From: Cladosporium halotolerans
Taxonomy: Eukaryota
Length of the DNA stretch: 38,175 nt
Direction: 5' to 3'
NCBI RefSeq assembly: GCF_011745625.1
Contig: NW_027191521.1
Coordinates: forward strand, 1 to 38,175
Each line of letters starts with the position of its first letter. Position 1 is the first letter of the stretch. The notes beneath the pieces are model-generated. The model saw only the letters and a program-made list of their open reading frames with translations, had not been told where the DNA came from and did not search any database. The translations under genes were made by a program, and so were the position numbers. Positions 2,848-33,397 of this stretch are shown one piece after another.

Positions 2848-2933
2848 CGTTTGCCGCTGTTGGTATACGTTGTGAGTGAAGTAACGGCGAGACAACGGTG
2901 CCCCACAGGCGCCCGCAGCGGCGTCAACGCGAC

Positions 2934-3001
2934 CGCGAAATTCCAGGCTGGGCTTGGCGTTGACCGCGAAAACCCGATACAGCCTAGTTTCGATCGCGAA
3001 A
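2934..3001. promoter_or_regulatory. Three CGCGAAA (SCB/MCB-like) motifs upstream of the helicase
   Basis: CGCGAAA at 2934, 2965 and 2995, each preceded by GAC or GAT, at 31/30-bp spacing. Confidence 0.35.
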
Positions 3002-3228
3002 TTCGCCATAGGGCTGCCAGGGCGGGCGTGCGGTCACGTCTCGCGGTGGTCACGCTGCTGCAACGGATCGTCGGAAGGTCTTATGTTTACTTCATGTACC
3101 TTGGCCGTGGTGTGTTCACGATGTGACGTGCGCTTCGTTCCATATCCCCTCCTCGTTGCATCTTGAGGCGCAGGGATACCAAGTCCAGCGCATGGCTATT
3201 CCAGCTGTTTGATCCAACCCTGACGGAC

Positions 3229-6200
3229 CTACATGCCTCCTCTCTCTATCCACTGTTGCCATTCTTCTTTGCCCCACTTCGTCCAGGCCGGGAAGTCTCT
3301 CGGCCTTCCTCTTTGCCATCCTTTCCTCGCCCATTCCCACTTTTCCGATCGTCTATCGTCCTCCGCGCTGCGCTGGATTGAGTACCACATTCGCTTTCCT
3401 GTCTTGGTGGTCTGGAGAAGTGCGTTCCCGCAGGGGTATGGCAACACCCAGTGGTACTCGTAAAGCCATTCCCACAGTCTTGCCTGGAAAAGCCTCTTGT
3501 ACTGCCGGTTCCGGATCCTGACGCCCGTCCTCGCTCGTCGATACAACACCCTGAAAGGCCGGTCCTCCCAGTGCTCCCTCACCACCCCGTCGTCGAAGCC
3601 AAAAAGGAAGTGGCCCAGCCTGGATACTTGCTTGAACTCGGTCTTGTTGCCCGACATCAAGTAGCAGCCTCCGCTCATGATCTCGTCGACGTATTCGTAA
3701 CACAGACCTTTCTCTCCCTTGACTGCCTCTTCTCGCACTTCCTCTTTGACTTCGCCCTTCACTGCGCTCATGACGTCTAGCCGAAACTGCGCCAGACAGA
3801 TGTGTACCATCCACGACACGAGTCGATCACAGAGCCGTTCGTTGTTCCGATGCTCTCCAATCCAGTCCAACGCGAGCTCAAGCTGGCGACTGATGTCGAA
3901 AAAGCCTCTCGCCTGCCTTCCGCGACGGAGGTACTCGCCTTGTAGAGTCTTATTGCCAAAAAGCACATTGTCCGTCACGTCCGAACGAAACTGGAGAGCG
4001 TTCCAGTCTATACGGGGCTCCAACCAGCAGTACTTATGCATGGGAAGGGTGTTCTTGAAACCAAGACCGTACCAAAACCGCAAGCGCGGTGGATCGCCGA
4101 CCGTTCTCTCGCGCTTGCTGTGCCAGAGCGCACCCTCTTGTTGGAGCAAGTGACCTCCACACACGTATCTGAGACAGCGCAAAAACATCGCCATCATTTT
4201 CGTTTGCTCCCAGGTGGTGAAGTCCTTACGGCTACGGGCTTTGACAATCTCGAATCCGGCGGCGAATTTATCCACACTGCGCCACAAGAAGTCGACGTAT
4301 ACTTCAGTCCTGATGGCCCACGAGTAAGAAGGGCATTCATCCAGGAGCATTGCTGGCTGTCGTGCGCTCTCGGTGCGGAAGCGATCCATGATTCCCTGAA
4401 ACACAGCCCACGTTACGCGGTGCTCCTCGCGGATGCCGTACGACTTCTGTCGTGCGTCTCGTAGTGCACGATGGGTTCGTTGCTTGCTTGCTAAGTACCC
4501 CACCTCGACGGTTTTCGCGTCTCGACGCCCCCCTCCAAGTATGTTCCTTGTTGCGTTCCGGATGTTGGGATCTAGGGCGAGCTCTTCCATGGCATCATTT
4601 GCGAACGGGAAGCACTTGTTGGCGTCGTAGATCTCCTTGACCGAGTTGTAGAACTGGCTGTATATGAGGCCTCCCTCTCTGTGCTTCGACTTCTTTGGAG
4701 TGACGCTCGTTAGGGAACCTGTGTCGTAGAGCATGTTTTGCGTGTAGTACTGCTGTCCTTCGCCTTGGATTGGAGGGCGATCATCGTACAGCCACTTCAT
4801 ATACCTTTCTAGGCAACATCGCTTCCAAGCATACACTTGTGGTTCATCGTCCAGGTGTCGCTCTTGTCCCTTAATCAGGCTGCTCTGAGGACAGATCTCT
4901 TTCCCGATGTCGACATAGAGCCTGTCCAGCTCAACAAAGTCGAGGTCGAGATAGTCCTCGAGGAATGTTTCAAAGGATTGCATTGCGTCGCCCAGACTTG
5001 GCCGAGTATCGCTGGTCTTGAATTGCAACTTCGTGCCTTTTGAAGAAAAAAATATCTGGGGGTCTCTGAAATCTGCCAGGCCTGGGACGGTTGCGATCGT
5101 TGTCAATACATCATCCCAGACGTGATCCAAGTACTCCGGTTGAAGGTGGTACCCTACGGCACGCTTGGCTTTGTAGCTCTGCCCTCCGACTTGTCGGGTC
5201 TCGACATTGTGCGCTCGTGAGTTGTCGGAGGCCGTCTGGAAGCTTGCCGGAATGTGCTGCGTGTAGTGAGCCTTGTAGAACTTGTGGAGGGCCGGAAGAT
5301 ATATTCGGTCCGCCCATCGGGAGAGCTGTTCCTTGTTGAGAGACTTGAACTTCTCCCCGAGTATCGGAATATGTGGGAATAAGACGTAGACGGTGATGTC
5401 GTGGGCACCTTCGATGCGGCCGAGCATGAAGTGTGGGATGCGCTGTAGCATCGCAACCCTGGAGTGGTCGGCTCTCTCGGGGTCTACATTTGGGGTAAAC
5501 ATGCGGTCGCGGATGTGTACATCTGCATTGATGTTCTGCCTGGTTTGCGGCGCGATCTGGGACCACAGGCCTTTCTTCGCGAACGCAAGCGACGTTGCGA
5601 AACCAAGGAAACTGTCGATGTCGAATGCTACATCGGCGTCGGTCGCGCGACTCTGTTCTTCGTGTAAGCATAAGTTGATGGGATAGCGCTGTCGGCCGTG
5701 GGTCGGTATGCCACAGAATATGGACTTCCACTGGTCAGATGTCGGCCTCCTTTCTCGAGCGAGACGCTCGGGTGTGATCATTTCCTGCAAACCTAGGACA
5801 GACGGGAAGGTATCGTCGTTGAACATCTCTGCAAGACCGTGGTGGTTATCGCCTACGTCAATTAAATGTCGCCTGCGGTGTTCATCGTGCTCTTCCTCCG
5901 TGCAGCCGTGAAAGCCGTGCACTAGTTCTTCGTAAAGCTTCTGGACCACAAACTCCAAGGGTGTGACTTCATCATCCTCACTGTCTTCACTAAGCAACGA
6001 CGAATGCTCCGATTGGAAGCTGACGTGGGATTCACTGTCACTGCGGTTGTGCTCTAGGCTACGAAGCTGCTCTTGGCCGAGGAGATCCTCGCTTCCGACC
6101 TGGTGATCACTCAATTCTTCCACAGGAGGATTGACACTCCAGTCTTGGTCTACGTCGCTGATGGCATTGTCCACGAAGCCTTCGTCCCTGCCCGCTTGCT

Positions 6201-6840
6201 CTTGCTGGGTATGTGTAAGCCCCTCCAGATTCTCTGCGGATGGTCCATTATCATACGACTCGGGCTGTGGCTGTGCTCTACTTGGTCCAGCAATGGGAGA
6301 AGATATAACCGGGCCGTTGAGACTGCTACTCACACGTCGTGTCGTTCCGCTATCTGTGGCGGTCCTTGCTGGGAGCGACTGAAAGTGTCCCGTGAGTAAG
6401 GATCGATTTTGAGAAGCGTCCTTTGGTAATTGACTCGGCCTTGCAGCAAATTGTTTGAAGAACCCCTCTGGTAACATTCTCTGACGCGGTATATAGTCCT
6501 GGGCTCTTTCTTGTTCTTGGTACATATCATGTTGTTCGTCGACATCCGTCGCGTTCTGTTGCAACTCCACTTCAGCGCAATCTTGTGGAAAGCTCATTCC
6601 CTGGACACGGAGCCCAAGTTGCATTAATGTTGCTGCTGCATTTTCTTCGGCAGAGGTTGTAAGGTTTATTATTTGTTCGCCCTGTACGAGTTGCTCTGTC
6701 GACCTTGCCGTCGTTCTGTTGTTTCCTTCTCGTTGCCTTTGGCGGAGCTGACGTACGCGTTCCCGTGTCTGCGTGCGCCGGCGCTCAACAGCAGCATCTC
6801 TGCTGTCGTCAAGGACTGGCCGGCCGCGTTTAGATGTCAT
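3229..6840 (-). CDS. Large intronless hypothetical protein (1203 aa), probably mobile-element encoded
   Basis: Uninterrupted 3.6-kb ORF. N-terminal KRGRP and basic helix, low-complexity linker, His/Cys patch (HGFHGC..HDEH), then a ~850-aa aromatic-rich globular region. Family not recognised. Confidence 0.85.
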   Translation of the reverse strand: MTSKRGRPVLDDSRDAAVERRRTQTRERVRQLRQRQREGNNRTTARSTEQLVQGEQIINLTTSAEENAAATLMQLGLRVQGMSFPQDCAEVELQQNATDVDEQHDMYQEQERAQDYIPRQRMLPEGFFKQFAARPSQLPKDASQNRSLLTGHFQSLPARTATDSGTTRRVSSSLNGPVISSPIAGPSRAQPQPESYDNGPSAENLEGLTHTQQEQAGRDEGFVDNAISDVDQDWSVNPPVEELSDHQVGSEDLLGQEQLRSLEHNRSDSESHVSFQSEHSSLLSEDSEDDEVTPLEFVVQKLYEELVHGFHGCTEEEHDEHRRRHLIDVGDNHHGLAEMFNDDTFPSVLGLQEMITPERLARERRPTSDQWKSIFCGIPTHGRQRYPINLCLHEEQSRATDADVAFDIDSFLGFATSLAFAKKGLWSQIAPQTRQNINADVHIRDRMFTPNVDPERADHSRVAMLQRIPHFMLGRIEGAHDITVYVLFPHIPILGEKFKSLNKEQLSRWADRIYLPALHKFYKAHYTQHIPASFQTASDNSRAHNVETRQVGGQSYKAKRAVGYHLQPEYLDHVWDDVLTTIATVPGLADFRDPQIFFSSKGTKLQFKTSDTRPSLGDAMQSFETFLEDYLDLDFVELDRLYVDIGKEICPQSSLIKGQERHLDDEPQVYAWKRCCLERYMKWLYDDRPPIQGEGQQYYTQNMLYDTGSLTSVTPKKSKHREGGLIYSQFYNSVKEIYDANKCFPFANDAMEELALDPNIRNATRNILGGGRRDAKTVEVGYLASKQRTHRALRDARQKSYGIREEHRVTWAVFQGIMDRFRTESARQPAMLLDECPSYSWAIRTEVYVDFLWRSVDKFAAGFEIVKARSRKDFTTWEQTKMMAMFLRCLRYVCGGHLLQQEGALWHSKRERTVGDPPRLRFWYGLGFKNTLPMHKYCWLEPRIDWNALQFRSDVTDNVLFGNKTLQGEYLRRGRQARGFFDISRQLELALDWIGEHRNNERLCDRLVSWMVHICLAQFRLDVMSAVKGEVKEEVREEAVKGEKGLCYEYVDEIMSGGCYLMSGNKTEFKQVSRLGHFLFGFDDGVVREHWEDRPFRVLYRRARTGVRIRNRQYKRLFQARLWEWLYEYHWVLPYPCGNALLQTTKTGKRMWYSIQRSAEDDRRSEKWEWARKGWQRGRPRDFPAWTKWGKEEWQQWIERGGM

Positions 6841-13227: not shown

Positions 13228-13738
13228 ATCAGCTATGGCCGCATGTAGGGCAGCTTAAAATGTGTAATTCATGTTCAGCTCCACCGGCTAGCTACGTCAA
13301 AGAATGTCTTGCGTGATGGCTCAAGCTGATTGCAGGAAGGGATTAAGCCCGTATCAGATGATTGGAGTGGAGTCATTGAACAAGACTAACTTACGGCTAG
13401 TATAAGGTTACGGCGAGGTCGATCTTTACGAATGCGATACAGAGCTCGTAAGTCCAAGGTGATAGCGGCAGGTTTCGAAATTGCATACGGACCCCGTTCA
13501 AAAGCAGAAGCGACCTCCAATGCACATCAACGCCTGCTACTGTACTGTAACGTCGTACCGAGCTTGAGGTCTTCGGTGATTCTGTATCACGCCTGCTCAC
13601 TGTGTTGATCACTCCCGGGCCAAGACCATTCGAACGTTAACTTACACTTACAAGATTAACAGTGAAACGCGCTTCGTCGTGGATCTCTTGGCCGAATGAT
13701 TTTCCCGACATCATGGACTCAGGGCAGGGGTTGGGGTA

Positions 13739-15689
13739 ATCGTGCCGGCCAGGGCTTCGCGCGGCCCAGCTACCCCTCGTCTCGTCTCAGACTCGCGAGC
13801 GAGTGCCGCACAGCTCAATGCAAAACACAGCTCAATGCAAAAGTTGGTATAGCTACGCGTCTATTCCCTTTTCACATATACTATTCAATCGCCATGGCGT
13901 CTAAATACCACCAGGTCGAGGCGGAGATTGATGAAGCTATTAGTTTTCAGAGAGACCAAACGGAACCTCTTAAAATTACCCATTTGGCCTCATTGTTTGA
14001 CGTCCCCTACGACCGCTTACGTAGGCGGCTCCAAGGCAATGACTCAAGAACTACGCGCGCTCCTACAAACAGGAGACTGGACAAGGAGCAGGAGGCTGCG
14101 CTAGTCACCTACCTGGAGCGTTGTGAGGCCCTAGGAGTCCATGCACGGCCGCGCGCATTAACTATCTCTGCCGAATCAATCCTCCGGCGTGCGTATACAG
14201 ATATATCGCCGCCACCAACAGTCAGCCATTCATGGACCCTACGCTTCTTAGAACGCCACCCTACATGGAAGAAACGTAAACAGGCGCCCCTAGAGGCAGT
14301 TCGAGCAGCTGCCTACGACCTCTCCGATATTGAGGGCTGGTTTGAGAAGCTACACGCAGTCATTCAAAAGCATGGCATTACACCTGAGAATATATGGAAC
14401 ATGGATGAGACAGGCTTCCGAATTGGCACCAGCAAGAGCCAGTATGTGCTTACTGAGCAGCCTGAGAAGCCCCACTTCCTACCAATTGCGAATAACCGTG
14501 AGAGCCTCACGGTGGTGGAGGCAGTCTCAGCTGGTGGTATAGCTATACCGGCTATGCTTGTCATCGCCGCAAAACAGCACCAATCGAGCTGGTTTCAGAA
14601 CCTACACGACACGACACTAGTAGGAGCCGCTGATAATGGCTATATGAATGACGAGTTAATGGTTAGATGGATTGCGCACTTTGAGAAGCATTCTCAGCGC
14701 TCTCAAAGAGGTGCCTGGCGGCTACTTTTACTCGACGGCTACGGCTCCCACCACACCTACGAGTTCATTAAGTACTGCGATGAACATAAGATCATCCCCT
14801 TCGGACTGCCATCGCATTCAACACACTTCCTACAACCCCTAGATGTCGTGGTATTTCAGCCCTATAAACACTACCAATCTGAAGCTGTTAACCGAGCTGC
14901 GCGGCTTGGCTGTAGTGATTACAACAAGCTTGAGTTTTTCAATGACTTTGAATACTTCAGGCGACAGGCCCGGTCCCCTGGCACTATCAGAGCAGCTTTT
15001 GAAAAGACAGGGATATGGCCATTCAATGCAGCTATCGTGGTGGATTTCGTGCGCGCTCGGATCGAAGCAATCCGCCGAGCTCCTGCTCGAACGCCTATAC
15101 CACCACCAACCTACGATATCACGACTCCGCGTACAGTGCGTACGCTTAAGCGTCACTCAGATACTATCTTAAATGATAACCTACTTCATCCAGCTCTCAA
15201 AACTCGGCTCCTACCACTCCTTCGCGGTGCCCAAATTCAGGCTATTGCTGGGGCTGAGGCAGTCGAAGAATTAAAGGATTCAACTGTGGTAGCAGCTGCA
15301 TCTCGAGCTCGTGGACTACACAAGGGGTCTAGCCTTCAACGTGGCGGTATCCTTACGACTGCAAATGCGCGCCGCATGGTTCAAAATCGCGAAGATGATG
15401 AGATTGAGAAGGCCAAAAAGATGATTGAACGAGCAGATCAGGCTGCTTTTAAACAGCGTACGACCACCATGCTCAAAGCTATTCAGCCAGGTGGATCCCT
15501 ACCTATGTGGAAGAAATATCGCGCAAAGGTTATACCAACCTGGTGCCAGGTGATGGATGAATTAGTAAATACAACAAGTAGTAATGTATAGCTTTGCATT
15601 GAGCTGTGTTTTGCATTGAGCTGTGCGGCACTCGCTCGCGAGTCTGAGACGAGGGGTAGCTGGCCGCGCGAAGCCCTGGCCGGCACGAT
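13739..15689 (+). mobile_element. Complete pogo/Fot1-type Tc1-mariner DNA transposon (1951 bp)
   Basis: TIRs of about 100 bp (ATCGTGCCGGCCAGGGCTTCGCGCGG...) with internal ACAGCTCAATGCAAA repeats. TA TSD at 13737-13738 and 15690-15691. Confidence 0.96.
13894..15591 (+). CDS. pogo/Fot1 DDE transposase (CENP-B HTH + DDE_1), 565 aa, intact
   Basis: WNMDETGF, LLLDGYGSH and HFLQPLDV. First ATG inside the TIRs is at 13894. Confidence 0.95.
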   Translation: MASKYHQVEAEIDEAISFQRDQTEPLKITHLASLFDVPYDRLRRRLQGNDSRTTRAPTNRRLDKEQEAALVTYLERCEALGVHARPRALTISAESILRRAYTDISPPPTVSHSWTLRFLERHPTWKKRKQAPLEAVRAAAYDLSDIEGWFEKLHAVIQKHGITPENIWNMDETGFRIGTSKSQYVLTEQPEKPHFLPIANNRESLTVVEAVSAGGIAIPAMLVIAAKQHQSSWFQNLHDTTLVGAADNGYMNDELMVRWIAHFEKHSQRSQRGAWRLLLLDGYGSHHTYEFIKYCDEHKIIPFGLPSHSTHFLQPLDVVVFQPYKHYQSEAVNRAARLGCSDYNKLEFFNDFEYFRRQARSPGTIRAAFEKTGIWPFNAAIVVDFVRARIEAIRRAPARTPIPPPTYDITTPRTVRTLKRHSDTILNDNLLHPALKTRLLPLLRGAQIQAIAGAEAVEELKDSTVVAAASRARGLHKGSSLQRGGILTTANARRMVQNREDDEIEKAKKMIERADQAAFKQRTTTMLKAIQPGGSLPMWKKYRAKVIPTWCQVMDELVNTTSSNV

Positions 15690-15922
15690 TAGTTCTAATA
15701 CTCGAATCCGACATTCTTGACGAAACATCCTCACAAGCACACAAAACCAGGCCTGCCAAAAGTACTACTCATCGGCTATATATTGTGTCACAGTGTTCAT
15801 TAAGCAAATGTCCTGTTCAGTTCTCTACCCTTAAGAAAACGCCTACCCGCACAGGGTACCCTTTAGTGTTCGTACCATTGGCAAGCTTGAAGACTGTCAT
15901 TGAGAGCAACACCAATCATCTC

Positions 15923-17842: not shown

Positions 17843-18560
17843 TGTGACTGCTTCTGTTTGGGGATGTGAGATGAGCAAGACAGACACGGAACAGTCACGG
17901 CACGACGAAAGGCGCCGAGGAGTATACCATACAAATTCAAGCTATGATGTAATACCACTTACCCACCCTTACGTTGTGTGCCTGCCGCATATCGTCATCA
18001 TGAATGCATCGACGGCTTGGCCAATCATTGGCCTGTGCCACCACACACATACATTCTCCGCCCACAGGCTCGCCGCTTTTCTCTCGCCCTGCAGATCGTG
18101 GCGCCCTACCCATAAGCTTTGTCCATGAGCCCTTCGTTCTTGGTCTCACATGTCGGCTGATGCAGGGGAGCATTGTGCGGCCAATGGAATTACCACGTTA
18201 GGGAATCGGAGTCACAAAGCGCTTAGCGCCCGGTCGGGGTCCAAGATAAACAGCTTATTCTCATTGTGCAAACTGTACTGATAACCCACAATATATGCTG
18301 ACGCTGATGTTGGTGTAACGTCAACCGTGGATCGTGGATCGAGGATTCGTAACGTCGTCATGTAAGTTAACCACAATCGAACCAGTACCACAAGCGAACC
18401 ACTTCAACTTAGTTTCTATAGACTCACATTGAACCTGACATCGCTACAACAATGCAATCGTCGCCAGATTATATATCTTCTTGATCGTCCCGGATTTTTT
18501 TGGATTTCTTTTTGTAATCATATTGTATACAAGCTGTTCAGCTTATGACAAGCCCGGGCT

Positions 18561-19620
18561 TTTTTTTTTTTGTTTTAATCATACTGCATTCAAGCTAAAT
18601 AGCTTATGGCACGTCGGCTATCTTCTCGACGATTTCTATGACTTTGATGTGTGCTCTCGCGTCAAGCTTCAAGTATACAATCCTGCTCGCTGTCCCGCCT
18701 TCATCAAGGCGCCACGGCTTTCGGGCTCAAGGCCCTCCTACTGGTTCTCGCGGGTGGCCGCAACCACTGGCCCTCGTCCCCTCTCCTCTCCGTCGTTCCG
18801 CTATCCTTCTCGTGCTACAGGCTGGACGACTCCGTTGACGGAGACGTACGCTGTCTTGTCTATACCAATTCCTTCTGGGGCTTGCCAGTCGAGACTGGAG
18901 ATGAACCCCAGAGGGACGAGTTCTTTGCTGTGCGCGCTTCCGGCCCTTCTAAGAAAGGTGAAAGCGGCTTGTTTTCTCGCTTGTGTACTGACGCGTGGCG
19001 TCTGCTGTGCTTGTCTTTGTCCAGCAGCTGGTCGAGTCCATCGAACGCTCGCGCTGTGTACCTTGTCCGATGTGACTCATCTCAATTCATGAGTCTATGT
19101 TTTGGTCTTCTTGCGAGAGCTGGCGGACTCATCGCGCTCTTGTGCAATTCCTGCATGGTTCTCCGACTCTTGCTCATCTGTGATGTCGAGTCGGCGTTGT
19201 CGTTGTCGGCGGTGGTGGTAGTGATAAGTCTTCTTGGCTGTGCGTGCGGCGTGCGCGCGTGTTTTGTCGTGTCGTGCAGAGTTTTCTCCTGACGGCTGGA
19301 CGATGAGGTGGGCGGTCTCATCGTCCATGTCGGGCCTTTTCGGTGGCGGTGGTGTAGTCGTGATGCCTGCCAGTGCGGCGTGCGTGCAGGCCTTGTCGTG
19401 TCGTGCAGAATTTTCCGGACGGCTGGACGATGAGGTGGGCGGCCTCATCGCCCATGTCGGGCCTTGTCGGTGAGGGAGGTAGGCATCGTCGAATGATGGC
19501 TTTGTGCGAGACTGCCACATGGGCTCATCGCTTTTCTGGTCTTGTGTAGCGCACTTGGTTTCACTGCATAGCAGCTACTCACACCGGACACCACGTGAAG
19601 GTGTGCGCTCTCTGTCCGGC
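18561..19620 (-). mobile_element. Non-autonomous non-LTR retroelement (SINE-like, 1060 bp) with LINE-derived 3' end
   Basis: 13-bp TSD ACAAGCCCGGGCT at 18548-18560 and 19621-19633. Poly(A) tail, 3' motifs shared with the LINE, no RT ORF. Confidence 0.9.
19548..19620 (-). ncRNA. HDV-like self-cleaving ribozyme (predicted)
   Basis: Minus strand: P1 GCCGGAC/GUCCGGU (G1-U wobble), J1/2 AGAG, P2 AGCGCAC/GUGCGCU, P3 ACC/GGU, L3 UUCACGU, P4 core CUGC-UAU-GCAG, J4/2 CCAA. G1 is the first base inside the TSD. Confidence 0.85.
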
Positions 19621-20041
19621 ACAAGCCCGGGCTAATCCCTAGACGAATCTCTTGGTCTTCTATCTGTGCTCCTGCGTTGGTGTCATTCCTTCGATCCTGC
19701 TCGCCATCCCGACTTAGTCAAGTCGCCACGGCTTTTGGGCTCAGCGCCCTCATACTAGCTTGTCTTTGGTTTTGCCACGTCCTCCCTCGCCGTCTGTACT
19801 CATCTCGCTTCCTCCCTGCTAAAGTGTTCTCTCATCGTCCGTGCCCTCCCGGTCGAGCAGACCAACGTCCCACTCATCTAGTCCTTGTGTGCTGTTCGCC
19901 TCTGCCCTTTTGCCGACTGCTGTGCATTCGATGAACCGCAATACTGCCTCGACAGCTGTCTCGCCGAACAGGACCAGTACGTCTTGCTTGTTTCTTCTCG
20001 TCGATATCTTGATTTTCTTCGCTTCGAGGGCATGCAGCATC

Positions 20042-20162
20042 TGTTGAAAAGATGGCTGAGTGTGTATTGTAGAAGGCTAAGTTACAATGTGCACTGCTAC
20101 AGTACTTGTAGTAGCATGTGGGTCCGTGCCTGAGCATCCATGCATCCATGCATACTTCAACA
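20042..20162 (-). repeat. Copia 3' LTR
   Basis: TGTTGAA...TTCAACA; 120/121 identical to 25959-26079. Confidence 0.97.
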
Positions 20163-20206
20163 CCACCCCTTGCTCAGTGTATTGCCACATTGCTGCAATG
20201 CGTCTC

Positions 20207-23200
20207 TCAGTCTCTCGCTTCCAATCCAAGCGCCATTCTGAATCGAGTGAACAACTCCTTGTTTAGTGGCTTAGTCAAGCCGTCTGCAATCATCTTCGAC
20301 GTCTTTGTCCACTGCATATCAACATCGCCATCTTCAGTCCGCTCGCGGACGTAGTGGTGCTGAATATCCACATGCTTCATCCTGCCATGAAATTGAGGGT
20401 TCTTAGATGAAGCAATAGCACCTTGATTGTCTCCAAATATCACGGTTGCATCCAACTGTGCATGCCCGAGGTCCTTCAAAAGCAAGCGTAGCCACATTGC
20501 TTCCTTGGTAGCCTGTGTTTGTCCGATGTATTCAGCTTCACAAGTGGATAGTGATACTGTAGCCTGCAGCTTGGATGACCAACTAATGGTCCCGCTACCT
20601 AGGTTGAAGACGTAACCAGAGGTTGATCGCCGAGTTTCTGAGTCTCCGGCCCAGTCTGCATCGGTGTATCCGAGCAGGGATGCTAGATGTCCAGTGTATA
20701 CAAGCTCGTAGTCGAGAGTACCTCGAAGGTAGCGCATAATACGCTCGACAGCTGTCCAGTGAGTCTGGTCGGGGTTGGAAGCAAATCGGCTTACAACTGA
20801 GACAGCATATGCAATGCCTGGGCGGGTGCCAAGCATAGCATACATCAGGCTACCGACTGCCTTCTGATATCGCTGCCTAAAGACCAAGCTAGCGACGTAC
20901 TCAGGATCAGGTTTCTTGAGCTTAGCTCCTGGATCCATTGGTACTGCGGCAGATTTGCAGTTCCACAGATTGTGGCTTTTGAGAAACTTCTCAATATATG
21001 CTTGCTGGCCGAGGTAAATGGTGCGGTTCGCTCGGTCACGACGTACTGCCATACCAAGGTAGTAATGACATGGTCCAAGGTCTGTCATTGTGAAGCGAGC
21101 GCTCAGCGCCCGCTTGAGAGCGTCAATCTCATCCATGTCAGGACTAACGATAAGAAGATCATCGACATAGACCGCAATAAAGGTAGCGCCTTTGTAGAAC
21201 ACGCTGACGTCTGCAGAAATCGGCTTATACCCAAGGCTCCGAGAAACTGAGTAAGGAGGTTATACCAAATCCGAGGGGACTGCTTGAGGCCATACAGCGC
21301 CCTGAGGAGTTCACAGATCCACTCCTTATTATTGTCTGGGGATCCATCCACGTCCAAGCCTTCCGCGTCTGGTTCGGCCTCAAACCCGGTTGGTTGATCG
21401 ACGTATACCTCATCTAGTATATCACCGTAGAGGAATGCAGTCTTAACGTCCATCTGATGGATATGATAGTCTTTTGCAGCAGCGATAGCAAATAGAGCCT
21501 TGTAGCTCATTGGCTTGACTGTAGAGGCAAAGGTCTCAGAGGTGTTGTCATCGTCTTGCTCGAAGCCTCTAACAACCCAACGGGCTTTGTATTTTGCAAT
21601 ACTACCGTCTGCGTTGCGCTTCAGGGTGAAAACCCACTTGCCCCGGAGTACTCGCTTGCCGTTGATTGAGGATCGCTTCTTCAAACGCCAAGTTTTGTTT
21701 AAGCGCAGAGATTTCACTTCCTCGTTCATTGCAGACTTCCACTGGCTCCAGTGACCACTAGTCTTCGCTTCGTCGACAGTCTTAGGTTCAAATGGCTCGG
21801 TGAAGAGTGAAGCAAGCATCAGCGTATAGCAAAGTAGCGTAAAGTGTCTGTTGTCAAAGGAATCTGGTTGCTTGATCGCTGGCTGATGAGCCAAAGCAAT
21901 CGCTGTCCATTCCTCATCTGGGTATAACGTGTTTGGCTTGTTGCGTCTCGGACTTCCGGTTGTAGTACGCTCTGATTCAGTCGGTGTTGATGGTCTCGAA
22001 GGTACCTCTGGTCGTTCAGATTCGTTATCTTCATCGCCGTTCCCTTGACCTATACGCCCGAGAGCTTCTCGAGCTTCCTCAGCTAATGCTATCTTCTTAG
22101 CTGTTGCGTCAGCTGCATTGGCTGCCGCGGCTTTGTCTGAACCAACAATGCTGTCCGGAGGAGCCACAAATGGCAGTCCCCCTGGCTCAACGGGCTGTGT
22201 TGTGCTATTCCCATCAGTTGTACAGTCTTCGATAGGTGAGAGTGTCTCTGGGCCAGTGTGTGGTCTGCGCTCCCTGATTACGACGTTGGTACGCCATTCA
22301 GGCTTGCCGCTATCGCCGTCAGGTGCCACAAGGTAGTTGAAATGTCCTTTGAAGCCGAGCAACCGTCCAGTAAATGCCTTGGTGCCTACGACTTTTTGCC
22401 TCTTCCTCTCTGTCTTGAGTACGTACACCTTGCTACCGAGTGCTCGTATATGAGAGATATCGGGCTGTTCGCCTCGAAACTTCTCGTACGGAGTGACTTC
22501 GTGCCTGCTACAGGGTGAGAGGTTTCGGACTTCCATAATGTAGTGTTTGACAACCGGAGCCCAGTAGTTAGGGCTGACACCAGCAGACAGCAGTGTGGGT
22601 TGAAGCTTTTCTTCAATAGCCTTGTTCAGTGCTTCTGCACATCCGTTGGCTTCGTGTTGTTCAGTATCTGAGTACTGCAAATCGATCGCTTTGTCGTAGG
22701 CCCAGTCTTTATATTCAGTGCTTGTGTACTCTCCACCCCTGTCTTGAATGATGCAGCGTGTTACCCGTTCAGGACGCCCATGTCGCTCGAGAAAGTGCCT
22801 AGTACTTCTGAATACCTCCGACTTGTGAGATATGGTATCTACCTCGGCCCACTGCGTATAATCATCTAGGTGGGTTACCCAGTATCTGCTACCGTCGATG
22901 GCCTCGTCAAACGGTCCAGCAACGTCCGTATGGATGACTTCCATCGGAGAAGTACCTCTACGGAGGTGGCCGTTGTGAGGCCGCTGTCGCATCCGTCCAA
23001 GTACGCAGGCTTCACAGATACAGCGGCCATCCGGCTGTGTAGCATCCATGCCTGTGACCATAGTGCGTAGTCTCTTCAGGCTGCTCTCAGAGAGATGGGC
23101 CATTCTTTCGTGCCATAGTCGTAGGCCGGCGTCTTCGACACTATACGCTGCCGCAGCCATGTCTACTCCGGCTAGTCACGCCGTTGTGTCTAGCATGAGC

Positions 23201-25377
23201 AGTCCAGCCTTAATGGTAGCGCCGAACCGATGGATGCCTTGCGTAAATGTGAGGCCGTTGTCCGTCTTGTGAATGTTGTCGATATATGGCCACAGTTCAC
23301 TTAATGAAAGTAGATTGACCCCTGCTTTCGGAGAGTATCGAACTTCCGGTATTTCGAGCCATCTAGTACCAGCAGCTGTCTTGCATTGCACTCGAAGAGT
23401 CCCCTTGGCTACCGGGGTAACCGTGGCTCCACCAATACCGTTAGCTGTGTGTCCTTCAATGGCTTTAAGTGATCCTTCGACAAAAGCATCTTTGCGGCCA
23501 ATGAGGTGTCCGGAGGCGCCAGAGTCAAGTATCCATGCGTCCCAGAGGTTTATGCCACGGTGAATTGCCATATACTCGCTGGACGTAGAGCTGTTTGTGA
23601 ACAATGCCGTATTGTCGGTAGGTTGCGCTGATTCGGTGCATAAAGTGATACCAAATTGGCCTTGGTAGTTATCGCCAAAGATTGCTTTCTTTGTAGCAGC
23701 ACCCATGATCGAGATACCTGTATCTTTGTTGTTATACGGACGCTTCTGCTGTGTTTGCTTTCGTGCCAGACGCGCCGCCTTCAACAGCTTCCACCACTCA
23801 GGTGCAGTAGAGTCATCTGCCTCCCAACACGGTTGGCCAGCTGGATGAGGATACTGCTTATTACACGTCAGACAAGCCTTTCGTTGTTGTAGGTTCTGTT
23901 GACGGTTTCCGCTGAAATAAGCCTTAGTCGCGTCTTTGAGATTGCGGCCTTCGTACTCTTCTGCGAGTTTGATTGTGCGTTTAATCGACACAGCCTTGTC
24001 TTGGTCCTTGCCTTGGTCCTTGTCTGAAGCCACGATGGCATATCTGAGGTTGAATGACGTTTTGAACTCTTTGAAGGAGTCTGTCAGCCCATGTAAGCAA
24101 GCTTGCCAATGGTACGAACACTAAAGGGTACCCTGTGCGGGTAGACGTTTTCTTAAAGGGTAGAGAACTGAACAGGACATTTGCTTAATGAACACTATGA
24201 CACAATGTATAGCCGATGAGTAGCACTTCTGGCGAGCCTGATTTTGTGTGCTTGTGAGGATGTTTTTTTTCAAAAATGTCGGATTCCTGTATCACCCCAA
24301 CCCCTACCCTGAGTCCATGCTGTCGGGGAAATCATTCGGCCGAGAGATCCACGACGAAGCGCGTTCGGTCGACGCGTTGCTTTGAGAGAGAGCTCTAGCA
24401 GTATAATACGCCGCCTGAAGTGCTTTGCGATGGCTGACATTAATATGTTGTCGGACGATTCATCCTGTGTTAGCGAACACGAGGGAAGCGGTTTCGAATA
24501 TGTGAGGACACGCAACACCCCAAAGCAGGAGTACACAAGCTAAGAATGTCCTTAGAGCTGGCTCATTCACTCGCTCATCGTTGAGAGTATTGTCAATCGT
24601 CTATAGAGCCCTGTCCCATGCGAAACTCTTCAACTGTCAATCTGTAAGTATATGTAAAGAAATGGAGACTGTCGTGTTCTTTAATTCTTCGATGAACACT
24701 CTAAAACAATGTCACGTGATTGCCAAGACTCCTTGTGGCACACCCGAACAGCCAAAAGGCTTAATGAACAGCGATTTTCTTAAAGGGTACGTATAGGGTA
24801 GGGCCCCTTATTGGGTATGCTTACCATCGCCAAGCTTGCATGTAAGAACTTCTGTACCACAAACGATTCTGGCAATGCTACCGTGCTATGCAGGGTTTGC
24901 ATATCGTCTGTCACCTTCTGAATCTGAGCCCCATAGTCGGAGACGTTCTTGCAGTTGGATAGTGACAGGTCGTTAAAGGTGGCGCAGAGATCTTCGTAGC
25001 GGCCAGATCCAGACTCTTTAAACTCCTTGTCAAGCACTTCAAGTGCTTGCTTGATAGGTGTTTTCTTTTCCTTCTCAGCCATGAGCTTGCTCGCTCGATA
25101 GCCACATGTCTCATCCACTGTTGCGAATGCTTGTGACTGCTTATCCATCCACGCTTCCAGTCTAGCTTGGTAAGCGCCATTGGCTTCATTTTCATTGTTC
25201 TCGCCTCCAGCTTCGTGCTGCTTTGGCATTTCTGTCTGTCGTTCGAGGATCGCTGTGAACCCAGTCATTATCAGGCAGTTTTTGATCTGCTTGTGCCATG
25301 ACGGCCAGTCCTCTGGCGACTCCAGCTTCTTGAATGTATTGAAGGTCCTTCTTGGACTGTTCACGATACACCGACAT
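20207..25377 (-). pseudogene. Copia gag-pol with frameshifts (about 25332 and 21235), a MITE insertion and an in-frame TGA (23176-23178)
   Basis: WILDSGASGH (protease); LWHERMAH, CEAC, IHTD, QDRGGEY and NGCAE (integrase); KARWVVRG, QMDVKTAFL and YVDD (RT); YTDADW, EAEY, DNQGA and ADGLTK (RNase H). Confidence 0.93.
24098..24838. mobile_element. Non-autonomous hAT element (MITE, 741 bp) inserted in Copia gag
   Basis: TIRs CAAGCTTGCCAATGGTA and CAAGCTTGGCGATGGTA (15/17). 8-bp TSD CATGTAAG at 24090-24097 and 24839-24846. Removal restores QKFLH|GLTDSF. Confidence 0.95.
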
Positions 25378-25574
25378 TGTGTTGTTGGATTGCTTTGTGT
25401 TACAAAGACACGAGAGGAATATAGTGGTTTGCTAGCTCGGTAATTGATGTTTGCCTTGCTGCTTACCACTATCTACTGCCTCGTCATATAAATATGAAGC
25501 TCACTGCCTATTTCGTTAGCAAAGTATCCAATTGATCGAGGGCTGCAGGGGTTGCAGAGTTTTTAGAAATGTTG

Positions 25575-25771
25575 TGTCGCAGCCACGTCGCAGCTACGTT
25601 TCAGCCATGTCGCATCTCTGTCGCATCTCTGTCGCAGCTACGTTTCAGCCATGTCGCAGCCTTGTCGCAGCCTCCTTGTCGCAGCCGTGTCGCAGCCACG
25701 TCGCAGCTGCGTTTCAGCCACGTCGCAGCCTTGTCGCAGCCTCCTTGTCGCAGCCGTGTCGCAGCCACGTC
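25575..25771. repeat. Minisatellite of ~11-bp (T/C)GTCGCAGCC units with a 69-bp higher-order duplication, in the Copia 5' leader
   Basis: Directly visible tandem units; CGTTTCAGCC recurs at 25641 and 25710. Confidence 0.9.
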
Positions 25772-25958
25772 ATGGATTATTGCTGCCTCAACAAAATCGT
25801 CTTATCTTCGAAGATTGGGTGTCTCCCAATCCGGTGCTCATTGCAGTGTTGTTGCCGTAAAGATAAGTTGAATCGTGGATAACAGCCTCCTTCTTAGCTA
25901 TGTGAGAACATAAAACGAGTGACAACAACGCGGAATAGAGCAATCCGGGCTCATAACC

Positions 25959-26079
25959 TGTTGAAAAGATGGTTGAGTGTGTATTGTAGAAGGCTAAGTT
26001 ACAATGTGCACTGCTACAGTACTTGTAGTAGCATGTGGGTCCGTGCCTGAGCATCCATGCATCCATGCATACTTCAACA
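25959..26079 (-). repeat. Copia 5' LTR
   Basis: Matches 20042-20162 with one substitution; followed by the PBS on the minus strand. Confidence 0.97.
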
Positions 26080-27458
26080 GCATCCGCTCTCGCTCTCTTC
26101 TCCATTTGCGACACTTGAGCATTAGGTGTGCCACGCTCTGTCTGTTGTCATTGCACCACCAGCAGCGGGCGTCGTGCACTCTCTTTGTCCTCATCAGATG
26201 CACACCTGTCATGGCGTGCCCCGACTTCAACTGCAGGTATCGCGTTGCTACCGCTTTGTTCGCGTCGCTGATGCGCTTGTTCAGCTTGGGTGATTGCTTC
26301 CCGCTTACCTTCACACATTGTTGCGCGTAGGAGATCGATGCGGAACGCATGTGTCGCGGTTGTTGTCGTGCTGCCCGACTTGCCAACGCATCGGCAATAC
26401 TCGCCCCTTCAGCCTCTGCATCGACAGAGATTGATGACAGTGTCAAACCGTATCCTTGCGCTTTAAGCTGCTTGGTTTGGTTTACGATCTGCTTCACCAG
26501 CGATGGCATCCACCGCCTGAGCCTGGTGACCGCTATGACAGCTTCTCGCGAATTCGTCACAATCTCTGCGTTTCGCTTTCCCGTCTTATGCAGGCTCGAG
26601 CAAGCTTCTTCCACCGCCATGCTGACAGCGAACAGATCTGCATCCACGACGGTTAGATATCTGCCGAGTGACGCTGCCTCTGTTCTCCAGCAGCCTTGCG
26701 CTTCCCACGCGACGCCCGCTCCGAAGCTGTTGCCTTCGGCGGTACCGTCTATGGTCCTTGCGAACAACGTGAGCTGTTCTGGCTGTTCCTCACTCCTCCG
26801 TTGTGTCGTTGTAATGTCCGGGCCGCGAACCCTGACATCGATGCCTGTTTCCGGCGAGCCCAGATCTTCGAGGAGGCCGAACCCGTATTCAGTGTCGTAG
26901 GCCAGCTTCTTAGCTATTTGCTGCGCCAGCCTGCCTCCGAGTGTACGGTGCGTTTTGTCGGGGCTGAGCCAGCCGACGCTTGACAAACGGTCTACGGCTC
27001 CTTCGTGTCTGTACAACTGGCCCATCCGAAAGTTCGGGGGCAACAGCTGATGTGTCGGGTGGTCTTGCGCGGCAGCAAGAGCTCGCACGGCAAACCGCGT
27101 TTGGCGATAGTCCAGCAGTTCTCCAGCACGTGGCAAGCAAGCTGCCGAGAGCAGGGTAGGGATCGGTGTAGACAATAGCATACCAGTGATGGCCCGCGCT
27201 TGACTATTCAGCAGTAGCTGCAGACGCTTCGAGCGGTCTTGTTGTCCCCTCAATCGTCCCGGATTTTCGAAGACGTAGGTTCGGATCTAGACCTACGTCG
27301 TTTACTTGTCTTTTTCTTCGCTGTCTCCGCTTCGGCTTGATGTAGAATTTCAACTACTTTCTCTTGTGAAAACAGGAATGTACCCTCCAAACGTACCCTC
27401 TTCCCTGTAGTTCTCTTTGCGCGGGTCTGAAATAGCTCATCTTTTGCCGCTAGCTCTC

Positions 27459-28650
27459 TTTTTTTTTTAATCATACTGCATTCAAGCTATATAGCTTATG
27501 GCACGCCGGCTATCTTCGCGACAATCTCTGTGTCTTCTATGTGTGCCCTCGCTTTGGTCTTCTACTGTAAAATCCTGCTCGCCGTCCCGACTCCACCAAG
27601 CCGCCACAGCTTTTGGGCTCAATGCCCTCATACCGTTCTGTCTTCAGTATCGCACCTCATCTGTCCCTCCCCTCGCTCAGTTCTCACGTCCTGATGTATT
27701 CGGCCTACATCTCACAGCTACACTTCCGCCGCCTGTGGCTGACCAGCATTAGATGAACATCAGTCTGTCTGCTGTTGCCGCACTGTGAGCATCGTGCTCT
27801 ACGAATAATCTCGATTCCCACGCTTCAGGGAGCGAGTCGTCCATACTCATGTCTGAGGATACCAAGATCGCATGCCGCGGTCCGTTCTGCCTAACGTCGA
27901 GCTGAGGCGCGTCTGTTTCTTCCTGGCTCTCCTTGCTTGGGTACTTTTCATTGTTGGACTCGATGTCCATCAACGGCGGGCTACTGCGCATTTTCTGCAC
28001 GTCGCTTGCACGTTTCTGCCGACTCGAAAACTTTTCAGGGCACTTTCGTGATGTCGCCACATGGGCTCCTCCACAGTTCGCACAGTTCGCCGCGTGGTGT
28101 TCGCACGGTTCTGCCTTCTTGCCGCAGCCTTCGGCGGCACATTCGGTGTTTGGCACCGTCGTGCTCGCCGGCGCAGATGTAGCATTTCGCCATTTCTGTG
28201 CACCGGCCGAAATGGTCGCGGCCACAGCATTGCATGCACATGCTGCCTTCTCCTCTTTCCCAGAACCTCTCTGCTTCGTGGCGCCTGCCGCCAAAGGATC
28301 ATCCTTTGGCCAGGATCGCATCCGCAGCGTGCTTGGTCTTCACAGTCAAGACTAATGTCGATCGCTTGATGTCTCCACTGTCGGATCGCTCGGCCAGCGT
28401 GTCGCTCTTTATCCATCGCGGTGCGTAAGGAAGTTGGGATCCAGTCATCACTTCGATCTCTTCCGTGCCAAGTCCAGACCACTTTCCGTCAAGTAACGGT
28501 CCAGTGCCACTGCATGCACGCGCAGTTTGCGCCACTTCTCTATCTTCTCAACATTGATGACCGCGGTGTCTAGTTTCTGCACAGCGGCCATGACGGCTGG
28601 CGCGTACTCCAGCAGTTCTTCGGCCCCCGCATGCCGGCGAACAGTATACA
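27459..28650 (-). mobile_element. ORF1-only Tad-like LINE derivative (degenerate gag with CCHC knuckles, then 3' UTR and poly(A))
   Basis: CMQCCGRDH..C, CYICAGEH and CANCGGAH..C, with frameshifts and a stop. The stop at 27749 is followed directly by the shared 3' motifs and a T-run at 27459. 5' boundary approximate. Confidence 0.8.
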
Positions 28651-32591: not shown

Positions 32592-33397
32592 TTTTTTTGT
32601 CCATACAGTATGCAAGCTATCTAGCTTATGGCAGGTCTGGGCTACAGACATTTTCTTGGCCTTATGTCTGTGTTCTCACGTTGGTGTTGCTTCAACCCTG
32701 CTCGCCGCCTCGACTGAGTCAAGCCGCCACGGCTTTTGGACTAGTGCCCTCATACGGGCTCTTGCGCGTGGTCACAACTGCTGGCCCTTCTCCTCTCGAT
32801 TACTCTCATCTCATCCCCTCCCCCTTCACATATCACAGGCTAGTTGCCTACAGTAGCGACGGTGCGCGCTGTCTTGTCCATGTTGCCAGCTTCATACTCG
32901 TTGCAGGGGGCTCATGCGTTATTCTTGCGGTCGCAGAGGTCTTCGTGAGCTCATTGCACAGAACGAGTTCGCTTCTTTCTTGTATCGTGAAATTGCTTGC
33001 CCTGGACTGTTGCATCTCCTTTTGCTGTCTTCCTTGTTGTCCGCCTCTTCGTCTCGGGTGCGAGCTGGCCTAAGGACTTGTTTGCGGCTATGTGCTTACG
33101 TGTAACGTCTGCCGTGCTCGTCGTGTTGTACCCGGCTGGTCGAGCCCATAGAACGCTCGTGACGGGTGTTTCTCAGGCGTGAGTCATCTCGTTCAATGAG
33201 CCCGTGTATGGGTCTTCTTGCGAAAGATGGGGAGCTCGTCGCGCTCTTGTGCATGTTGTGCGTGTTTTTCCGACTCTTGCTCACGTTCCATGTCGAGTTC
33301 GCATTGGCGGCCGCGTCGGCAGCGGTGGGGGCGTGTTGCCTGCTGGCGTGCGGTGCGCGCAATGCTTGGTTACAGGACCGGCAATTGAGTCTGTATA
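32592..33397 (-). mobile_element. Diverged, 5'-truncated relative of the 18561-19620 SINE-like element
   Basis: T-run, AAGCTATCTAGCTTATGGC hairpin and shared CCTGCTCGCC..CAAGCCGCCACGGCTTTTGG block. 33140-33310 aligns with 19030-19200. Confidence 0.8.

Follow-up and report, generated by a model that had tools for sequence, protein, structure and literature searches.

A candidate hepatitis delta virus-like ribozyme at the 5' end of a non-coding, LINE-tailed retroelement family from a Cladosporium halotolerans contig

Self-cleaving ribozymes of the hepatitis delta virus (HDV) type process the 5' ends of R2, RTE, Baggins and L1Tc, all of them retrotransposons without long terminal repeats (non-LTR) (PMC6765202; PMC3774820). 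HDV-like folds are defined by a P1 helix of about 7 bp that starts from the cleavage site and whose 3' strand follows directly after P3 and its loop L3, with a role for a G and a U of L3 (PMC3774820). Non-autonomous derivatives with such heads comprise the short internally deleted elements (SIDEs) of R2 and R2/R1 hybrid SIDEs (PMC3414825), and NARTc and other elements bearing Pr77 (PMC3383444; PMC4035085). From fungi, 230 variant HDV ribozymes have been reported in 26 species, and two cleave in vitro (Li and Breaker 2017, PMC5640933). The present work concerns a 38,175-nt stretch of Cladosporium halotolerans DNA (contig NW_027191521.1, positions 1 to 38,175, referred to as the window) and, within it, a 1060-nt non-coding, poly(A)-tailed insert whose first 73 nt are probably an HDV-like self-cleaving ribozyme at the head of a three-module, non-autonomous non-LTR retroelement.

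In the R2 SIDEs of Drosophila a 5' HDV-like ribozyme is likewise joined to the 3' end of a long interspersed nuclear element (LINE), and two of their features, trans-mobilisation through recognition of the 3' untranslated region (UTR) and a ribozyme that sets the exact 5' end from a co-transcript, are paralleled in the proposal made here (PMC3414825). SIDEs are site-specific in rRNA genes, however, and are cut from a 28S co-transcript (PMC3414825), whereas the window family is dispersed (19 flanks), fungal and poly(A)-tailed, with target-site duplications (TSDs) of 8-13 bp, a body of ~800 nt and a LINE partner of the apurinic/apyrimidinic endonuclease (APE) type. L1Tc and NARTc of trypanosomatids, which carry Pr77, resemble it as a dispersed APE-type LINE with a non-autonomous partner (PMC3185411; PMC3383444; PMC4035085). 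There, an HDV-like ribozyme head of ~77 nt is common to LINE and partner and is the most conserved module across several families; the host belongs to another kingdom, however, the sequences are unrelated, and Pr77 is in addition a proven promoter. For RTE, Baggins and R2 the likeness lies in the proposed mode of 5' processing, in which non-LTR elements lacking a promoter are cut out of read-through transcripts (PMC6765202). Elements described in that paper lie in introns or just downstream of LTR retrotransposons, and the window copy lies ~420 nt downstream of a Copia LTR of the same orientation; RTE, Baggins and R2 are autonomous animal elements, whereas the window element is non-coding and fungal.

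Typically, the published fungal variants pair C with G at the cleavage site, have part of P4 replaced by a loop E and carry one additional nucleotide, in most cases C, that separates P2 from P3; the variants are multi-copy with 'widely variable gene associations', and Eurotiomycetes are among the species listed in the supplement (PMC5640933). In the text of that paper 'transpos' and 'retrotransposon' each occur 0 times, and the literature searched contained no paper that connects HDV-like ribozymes with LINEs or short interspersed nuclear elements (SINEs) of fungi. An earlier note on this DNA, made from the letters alone, knew of no description of the family. That overstated its novelty, since ribozyme-headed non-autonomous elements and fungal HDV variants were already published; a connection of this design with fungal HDV-type ribozymes is apparently unpublished.

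Architecture and common 5' end of the family

The insert and its boundaries are defined by the following features.

18561..19620, minus strand: whole non-autonomous retroelement of 1060 nt, with ribozyme-like head, non-coding body, LINE-type tail and poly(A) (sequence, duplication, A tail, full-length relatives)
19621..19633, minus strand: 5' copy of the 13-bp TSD, AGCCCGGGCTTGT (sequence)
18548..18560, minus strand: 3' copy of the 13-bp TSD (sequence)
19227..19480, minus strand: two copies of an internal repeat of ~128 nt each (self-comparison; copy number differs among family members)

Running from 19620 (5') to 18561 (3'), the insert ends in an 11-A tail (18561-18571), and its two duplications are identical at 13/13 positions, confirming from sequence the earlier description of a 1060-bp poly(A)-tailed insert with a 13-bp TSD and no reverse transcriptase (RT). 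Each sense frame contains 9-11 stop codons, and the longest ATG-initiated open reading frames (ORFs) vary in frame and length among copies (141, 211, 148, 56 and 50 aa). A Pfam search of the longest ORF of the window element (141 aa) returned no match, and inspection of ORFs and Pfam results revealed no capacity to encode an RT or endonuclease in the element. ARAGORN found no tRNA-like sequence in it and Rfam no match of tRNA, 7SL or 5S type; because a tRNA-, 7SL- or 5S-derived RNA polymerase III head is absent, the term 'ribozyme-SINE' in the earlier note is a loose label, of which the LINE-dependent, non-autonomous character stands and the classical SINE head does not. Traits of LINE dependence are present in the form of the A tail, the TSD, many dispersed copies and 5'-truncated copies.

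A metagenome scan with the 17-nt core of the head (nt 16-32) as bait yielded 103 loci (L numbers below). The family was present at 26 of these, 23 close and three distant, the other 77 being unrelated; the close loci include one contig beginning at nt 9 and one finishing at nt 35. Together they provide 19 distinct 5' flanks (the window and 18 further insertion sites) with flank-to-flank identity of at most 55%. Similarity begins at nt 1 in 19/19 of these flanks, and the first three bases are GCC at 17 sites and ATC, two transitions away from GCC, at two. In all copies seen, the element's 5' end thus coincides with the cleavage site predicted from the HDV-like fold, as the earlier note had proposed for the window copy. 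Extension of copies upstream of nt 1, which the note had named as a refuting finding, was seen at none of the 19 flanks. Six insertions are complete at both ends, and in five the TSD abuts nt 1: the window (13 bp), L050 (12 bp), L024/L062 (13 bp, 1 mismatch), L028/L076 (8 bp) and L073 (8 bp). For the sixth, L067, no TSD was found.

Full-length relatives of the window element are L073 (87.9% identity over 1062 nt), L067 and L036. Lengths across the family range from ~675 to 1182 nt, for part of which the copy number of the ~128-nt repeat accounts, L067 carrying one extra unit relative to the window element. Over nt 1-80 the window copy equals the family consensus, as do L067, L065/L034 and L099/L090.

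Parts of the stretch were also found in 20 of 24 listed public sequencing runs, including air, plant and leaf-litter metagenomes as well as metatranscriptomes. Four of the 24 were compared (X2, X3, X4 and X6) as contigs only, which carry no start, end or level and whose uncovered parts are uninformative; contigs matching at >=80% numbered 132 in X2, 156 in X4, 14 in X6 and 4 in X3, an RNA library. In X2, a data set separate from the metagenome scan, five contigs cease to match at 19620 and continue into unlike sequence (agreement 0.49). Contig breaks at 18560 occur in X2 (3), X4 (4) and X6 (1), with further breaks at 18741-18743, the end of the shared tail, and joints skipping 18608-19650 correspond to paralogous LINE tails lacking the insert. 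Depth in X2 has peaks over the tail (2401 at 18570-18623) and in the head bin (1015 at 19542-19595), versus 58-200 at 19218-19379. Three X3 contigs (records 8-10) are identical to the window copy and cover 18815-19585. The element is a multi-copy, poly(A)-tailed, TSD-flanked, non-coding retroelement, and its family is real and widespread.

The 73-nt head

The predicted parts of the head are listed below.

19548..19620, minus strand: candidate HDV-like ribozyme, nt 1-73, predicted cleavage 5' of the G at 19620 (descriptor match, RF02682 match, conservation)
19614..19620, minus strand: 5' strand of P1, GCCGGAC, nt 1-7 (sequence; P1 pairs formed in 92.3% of alignment cells)
19583..19589, minus strand: 3' strand of P1, GUCCGGU, nt 32-38, directly 3' of P3' (sequence and pair counts)
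19603..19609, minus strand: 5' strand of P2, AGCGCAC, nt 12-18 (sequence; 97.8% of cells paired, 13 distinct copies)
19548..19554, minus strand: 3' strand of P2, GUGCGCU, nt 67-73 (sequence and pair counts)
19590..19602, minus strand: P3, ACC/GGU (3 bp, nt 19-21 with 29-31), around the 7-nt loop L3, UUCACGU, spanning nt 19-31 (sequence)
19560..19579, minus strand: P4, a 5-bp hairpin at nt 46-58 with loop-E-like flanks AGUA (nt 42-45) and GAA (nt 59-61) (sequence)
19555..19558, minus strand: J4/2, CCAA, nt 63-66, directly 5' of P2', with C63 as candidate catalytic cytosine (sequence)

Nucleotides 1-73 (19620-19548) read GCCGGAC-AGAG-AGCGCAC-ACC-UUCACGU-GGU-GUCCGGU-G...CCAA-GUGCGCU and can be drawn as an HDV-type nested double pseudoknot, the layout given in the earlier note, which matches the sequence down to the G1-U wobble and the single possible C-G pair of P1.1. 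P1 comprises 7 bp including the G1.U38 wobble and begins at the predicted cleavage site, J1/2 is AGAG, and P2, the outer pseudoknot, also has 7 bp (nt 12-18 with 67-73). U22 and G27 of L3 occupy the positions of the conserved HDV L3 U.G. The sole possible P1.1 pair is C24-G39 (G39 at 19582), U23 facing U40, whereas HDV has two pairs here, joining L3 to J1/4. In HDV-type ribozymes the catalytic C of J4/2 lies in a C-N-R-A motif ahead of P2'; C63 is retained in 13 of 14 aligned copies, being G in L017, and C64 is U in L050. The AGUA and GAA flanks of P4, which we take to resemble the loop-E consensus, are nearly invariant, with G43, U44, A45 and A61 unchanged in the 14 copies.

With the published fungal variants the head has in common a fungal host, the nested pseudoknot and a multi-copy state, and its loop-E-like AGUA/GAA may correspond to the loop E in their P4 (PMC5640933). 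It differs from them in having G.U rather than C-G at the cleavage site (G1.U38 in 12 of 13 distinct copies) and in requiring no extra nucleotide between P2 and P3, as C18 of the window copy pairs with G67. The distant relative L062/L024 (the same locus; L062 6986-7660) is an A-tailed element of ~675 nt with the TSD GCCAATGTA[G/A]ACC, of which the first 39-43 nt match the head (P1, P3, L3) and P4 and P2 differ. An 8-bp P2 can be drawn in it only with C18 unpaired between P2 and P3, and this need for an extra C is itself a likeness to the fungal variants. As L062/L024 and a further relative, L059, share with the head only nt 1-43 and lack a C at the expected place in J4/2, they were not used as support for a ribozyme.

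The fold was tested against chance by running a helix descriptor on the window and on 12 dinucleotide shuffles of it per setting. P1, a 6-bp P2, P3 and CNRA together matched four times in the window (shuffle mean 4.1), a 7-bp P2 reduced this to one match (shuffle mean 2.4), and the full descriptor (G1.U, 7-bp P2, G-C P1.1 and CNRA) gave one match against a shuffle mean of 0.083. The fold taken alone is weak evidence, because the helices and CNRA are at least as common in shuffles. The sole strict match, however, begins at 19620, the first base as defined by the TSD, and the chance of a match at one pre-set base is ~1e-6 to 3e-5 per position (0.083 or 2.4 / 76,350 positions).

A search of Rfam at gathering thresholds returned no match. 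The window's only match with E <= 2 was to an HDV ribozyme model, RF02682 (Faecalibacterium prausnitzii), at 19562-19620 with model position 1 at 19620, scoring 26.9 bits (E 0.41 window-wide, 0.0035 in a 321-nt search); no other HDV-type Rfam family matched up to E 10. P1, P3 and L3 align from model position 1 (CACaCCUCUaCGUGGuG versus CACACCUUCACGUGGUG), whereas P4, J4/2 and P2' are unaligned and the family is bacterial. Copies L017 (28.0 bits) and L028 (25.9 bits) match RF02682 in the same way.

Conservation of the head was computed without the 17 bait positions, as identity to the window copy over nt 1-15 and 33-73, and compared with nt 74-150 of the same copy.

L028: 96% over nt 1-15 and 33-73; 68% over nt 74-150
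L050: 91% over nt 1-15 and 33-73; 72% over nt 74-150
L012: 98% over nt 1-15 and 33-73; 62% over nt 74-150
L025: 84% over nt 1-15 and 33-73; 62% over nt 74-150
L101: 91% over nt 1-15 and 33-73; 69% over nt 74-150

Over the whole of nt 1-73 identity is 84-100%, compared with 62-72% over nt 74-150. The step coincides with the 3' end of P2', the tail being the second conserved module, and shows the head to be under constraint. The invariance of L3 and P3 among copies is uninformative here, because those columns were fixed by the bait.

In an alignment of 14 copies, the variants common to at least two independent insertions are A8G (J1/2), G39A and two changes in the P4 loop, U53C and an inserted C; changes confined to single copies, mostly G-to-A and C-to-T, also break stems and resemble decay after insertion. 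The pattern of shared variants, which comprises four changes only, is suggestive. Single-copy changes in L098, L004, L025, L050 and L059 are mainly G-to-A and C-to-T transitions, which may fit the repeat-induced point mutation expected in ascomycetes.

A covariance model built on P1, P3 and P4 only (R1) gave four extra weak matches, L017 1727-1805 (17.5 bits), L028 98-176 (16.1), L050 271-358 (14.4) and L025 741-830 (9.7), three of which form a 7-bp P1 without mismatch but of differing sequence. For none of the four was a convincing P2 or CNRA found, and they were not counted as covariation because R1 rewards P1 pairing. Four seemingly compensatory P2 changes in L028 98-176 were rejected, as alignment in register shows mostly one-sided transitions. 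The matches in L050, L025 and L017 all lie on the minus strand, and two have GACGAG as J1/2 and run on into T-poor sequence resembling the sense strand of a retroelement; these three may be heads of other families.

The 3' module, its LINE partner and the surrounding DNA

Two features define the 3' side of the element and its surroundings.

18561..18741, minus strand: 3' module common to LINEs and other elements, including a terminal hairpin at ~18592-18605 and the A tail at 18561-18571 (self-comparison, depth peak, loose ends at 18741-18743)
18499..27252, minus strand: host 5'-truncated LINE, with the C-terminal part of ORF2 at 27250-26078 and 20046-19885, followed by the 3' UTR (sequence, protein homologs)

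Within the window the 3' module matches 27459-27633 (83%), 19686-19775, 18509-18554 and 32592-32742. The last ~180 nt of the element consist of two conserved blocks and a terminal hairpin ~20 nt ahead of the A tail. The tail is 71-84% identical to the 3' UTR of the host LINE, in keeping with the shared LINE tail of the earlier note, and 83-93% identical to an element bearing an ORF1 piece. The terminal hairpin of the element is AAGCUA-UU-UAGCUU (18592-18605) and that of the host LINE AAGCUG-AA-CAGCUU (18526-18539), the sixth pair changing from A-U to G-C; those of the other two window elements (~27487-27500 and ~32613-32626) are AAGCUAUAUAGCUU and AAGCUAGAUAGCUU. The four hairpins thus contain one compensatory exchange, with A-U in three and G-C in the host LINE. 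When a LINE and its non-autonomous partners have a conserved 3' stem-loop in common, this is the standard mark of 'stringent' recognition of the template by the LINE RT, and the tail hairpin is likely to be such a recognition element.

The host LINE is interrupted by a Copia element (~20041-26079) and, in its 3' UTR, by the ribozyme-headed element in sense orientation; its own TSD, AAAATCCGGGACGAT, lies at 27253-27267 and 18484-18498. Against residues 831-1271 of P0002, an APE/RT protein of 1274 aa, its ORF2 fragment reaches 89-94% identity, and ORF2 homologs of 1270-1293 aa contain PF03372, PF14529 and PF00078, two also having PF00075. The best named homolog is from Hortaea werneckii, a dothideomycete (94% identity), and the C-terminus of the host ORF2 matches zf-RVT weakly (E 0.0019). 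On this homology, the LINE that has its 3' tail in common with the element is of the APE/RT type and belongs to a dothideomycete-like fungus.

Several neighbouring elements were also noted. From 27459 to ~28700 on the minus strand lies an internally deleted or truncated LINE copy with a CCHC zinc-knuckle ORF1 piece and an element-like tail, and from 32592 to ~33360 a 5'-truncated relative of the ribozyme-headed element with the same kind of tail; no TSD of >=8 nt was found for either. The Copia LTR retrotransposon at 20041-26079 (minus strand; gag-pre-integrase, rve and RVT_2; LTRs of ~128 nt, 98% identical; 5-bp duplication GATGC) sits within the host LINE ORF2, its downstream LTR ~420 nt upstream of the ribozyme-like head. 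Just inside its upstream LTR side, 25561-25753 form a tandem array of an 11-nt unit (GTCGCAGCC-like). A Tc5/pogo-type transposon at 13666-15889 contains a DDE transposase ORF (13696-15591) and 61-nt perfect inverted repeats (13781-13841 and 15593-15653). Copia-internal pieces at 24098-24365 are 91-97% complementary to its ends and may form a shortened derivative of this DNA transposon. At 814-6840 on the minus strand, two long ORFs, one of 731 aa with a PIF1-like helicase domain and one of 1203 aa without a Pfam match, may represent a Helitron-like element.

Alternative explanations, proposed mechanism and implications

One alternative accepts the head as a genuine HDV-like ribozyme and derives the whole element, as with SIDEs and NARTc, by internal deletion from a single ribozyme-bearing LINE that supplied both head and tail, instead of treating the family as SINE-like, independent in origin and furnished with a captured tail; it refines rather than excludes the reading given above, and we regard it as evenly balanced. 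It would account for two conserved modules separated by a variable body, and it has a parallel in the internally deleted LINE at 27459 to ~28700, which retains part of the ORF1 zinc knuckle and a tail 83-93% alike, and a precedent in the R2 SIDEs (PMC3414825). Yet tblastn with three ORF2 homologs, run on the window and on the 103 loci, detected nothing except the truncated host copy of the window, and the body has no similarity to the window's LINE pieces beyond the tail.

A number of observations weigh against a ribozyme. The distant relatives L062/L024 and L059 keep P1, P3 and L3 without a clear catalytic C or P2, and the score of RF02682 lies below its threshold of 44 bits, with an alignment confined to P1, P3 and L3. 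Of the checks proposed in the earlier note, the search with HDV models gave a match in register at the first base that falls short of the threshold, and conservation of the pairings held (intact in 94.6% of alignment cells, shuffles being equally good), whereas covariation in P1 and P2 failed to appear: both sides were changed in 0/23 pairs of the 14-copy alignment, a set that is not decisive because the copies differ too little and the bait fixed nt 16-32. The minimum free energy (MFE) of the head folded without pseudoknots is no better than that of shuffles (z 0.01), a value that is uninformative here because pseudoknots cannot form in plain MFE folding. G39A removes the sole P1.1 pair in L073 and L017, two independent insertions, and a source lacking this pair was therefore still propagated. 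An X3 contig (record 11) from a diverged copy, which shows 16 differences over 129 nt, nt 37 and 38 included, crosses the junction by 103 nt and represents either uncleaved read-through RNA or DNA carry-over. Finally, an internal promoter would also yield a precise common 5' end.

The 73-nt head could serve RNA polymerase II as an internal promoter or initiator, or bind protein as a structured 5' UTR; the 5' end would then be the transcription start and the HDV drawing coincidental. Some non-LTR elements begin transcription at their first base (PMC3774820), and the two to four occurrences per window of helices with CNRA in shuffles, the lack of covariation, the MFE z and the propagation of a subfamily without P1.1 all favour this explanation. 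We nevertheless consider it unlikely, as the fold falls exactly on the element's first base, the window's top Rfam match is an HDV model in register with that base, conservation ends at the last base of P2', and the L3 U and G are kept with the CNRA cytosine present. The two functions are, moreover, compatible, the 77 nt of L1Tc/NARTc being both promoter and ribozyme (PMC3383444). Least likely is a head that has decayed and lost its cleavage activity, in a family that spread earlier and whose window copy is inert: stem-breaking transitions in L098, L004, L025, L050 and L101 and the minimal P1.1 fit this, but the window copy equals the family consensus over nt 1-80, as three other copies or copy pairs do, and RNA-library contigs identical to it cover 18815-19585.

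The preferred reading remains that the head is, with fair probability, an HDV-like self-cleaving ribozyme within a non-autonomous element of three modules, namely the 73-nt head, a non-coding body of variable length and a ~180-nt 3' module with poly(A) that would have been copied from an APE/RT LINE of the same fungus. The element would be transcribed within a longer transcript, in this case in sense orientation in a LINE 3' UTR and downstream of the Copia LTR. The head would then fold into its nested double pseudoknot and cut 5' of G1, releasing an RNA that starts at the element's first base, and the LINE ORF2 protein would recognise the shared 3' tail with its terminal hairpin. Target-primed reverse transcription would copy this RNA into a new site, generating the A tail and a duplication of 8-13 bp. 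Of this reading, the architecture is well supported, as are the multiple copies, their exact shared 5' end, the selective conservation of head and tail and the LINE homology of the tail donor, whereas self-cleavage, co-transcription and mobilisation in trans are inferred.

A wider proposal, which we hold tentatively, is that fungal HDV-type ribozymes, including much of the published 230-variant class, are 5' processing heads of LINE-dependent retroelements. In the dothideomycete lineage, the 73-nt head and 180-nt tail would on this proposal be exchangeable modules on several unrelated, promoter-less non-coding bodies that live off read-through transcription.

The main value of the family likely lies in the link it provides between fungal HDV-type ribozymes and retroelements. 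A head model and a tail model used together would detect complete non-autonomous elements that usually go unclassified in fungal repeat annotation, and a small, abundant family found in RNA libraries is a convenient system for the choice of templates by LINE RT through a 3' hairpin. If cleavage is confirmed, fungal HDV-type ribozymes, proven in vitro and found in 'widely variable' contexts, would acquire a concrete biological role, and filamentous and black-yeast fungi would join animals and trypanosomatids as hosts of non-LTR retrotransposition with ribozyme processing.

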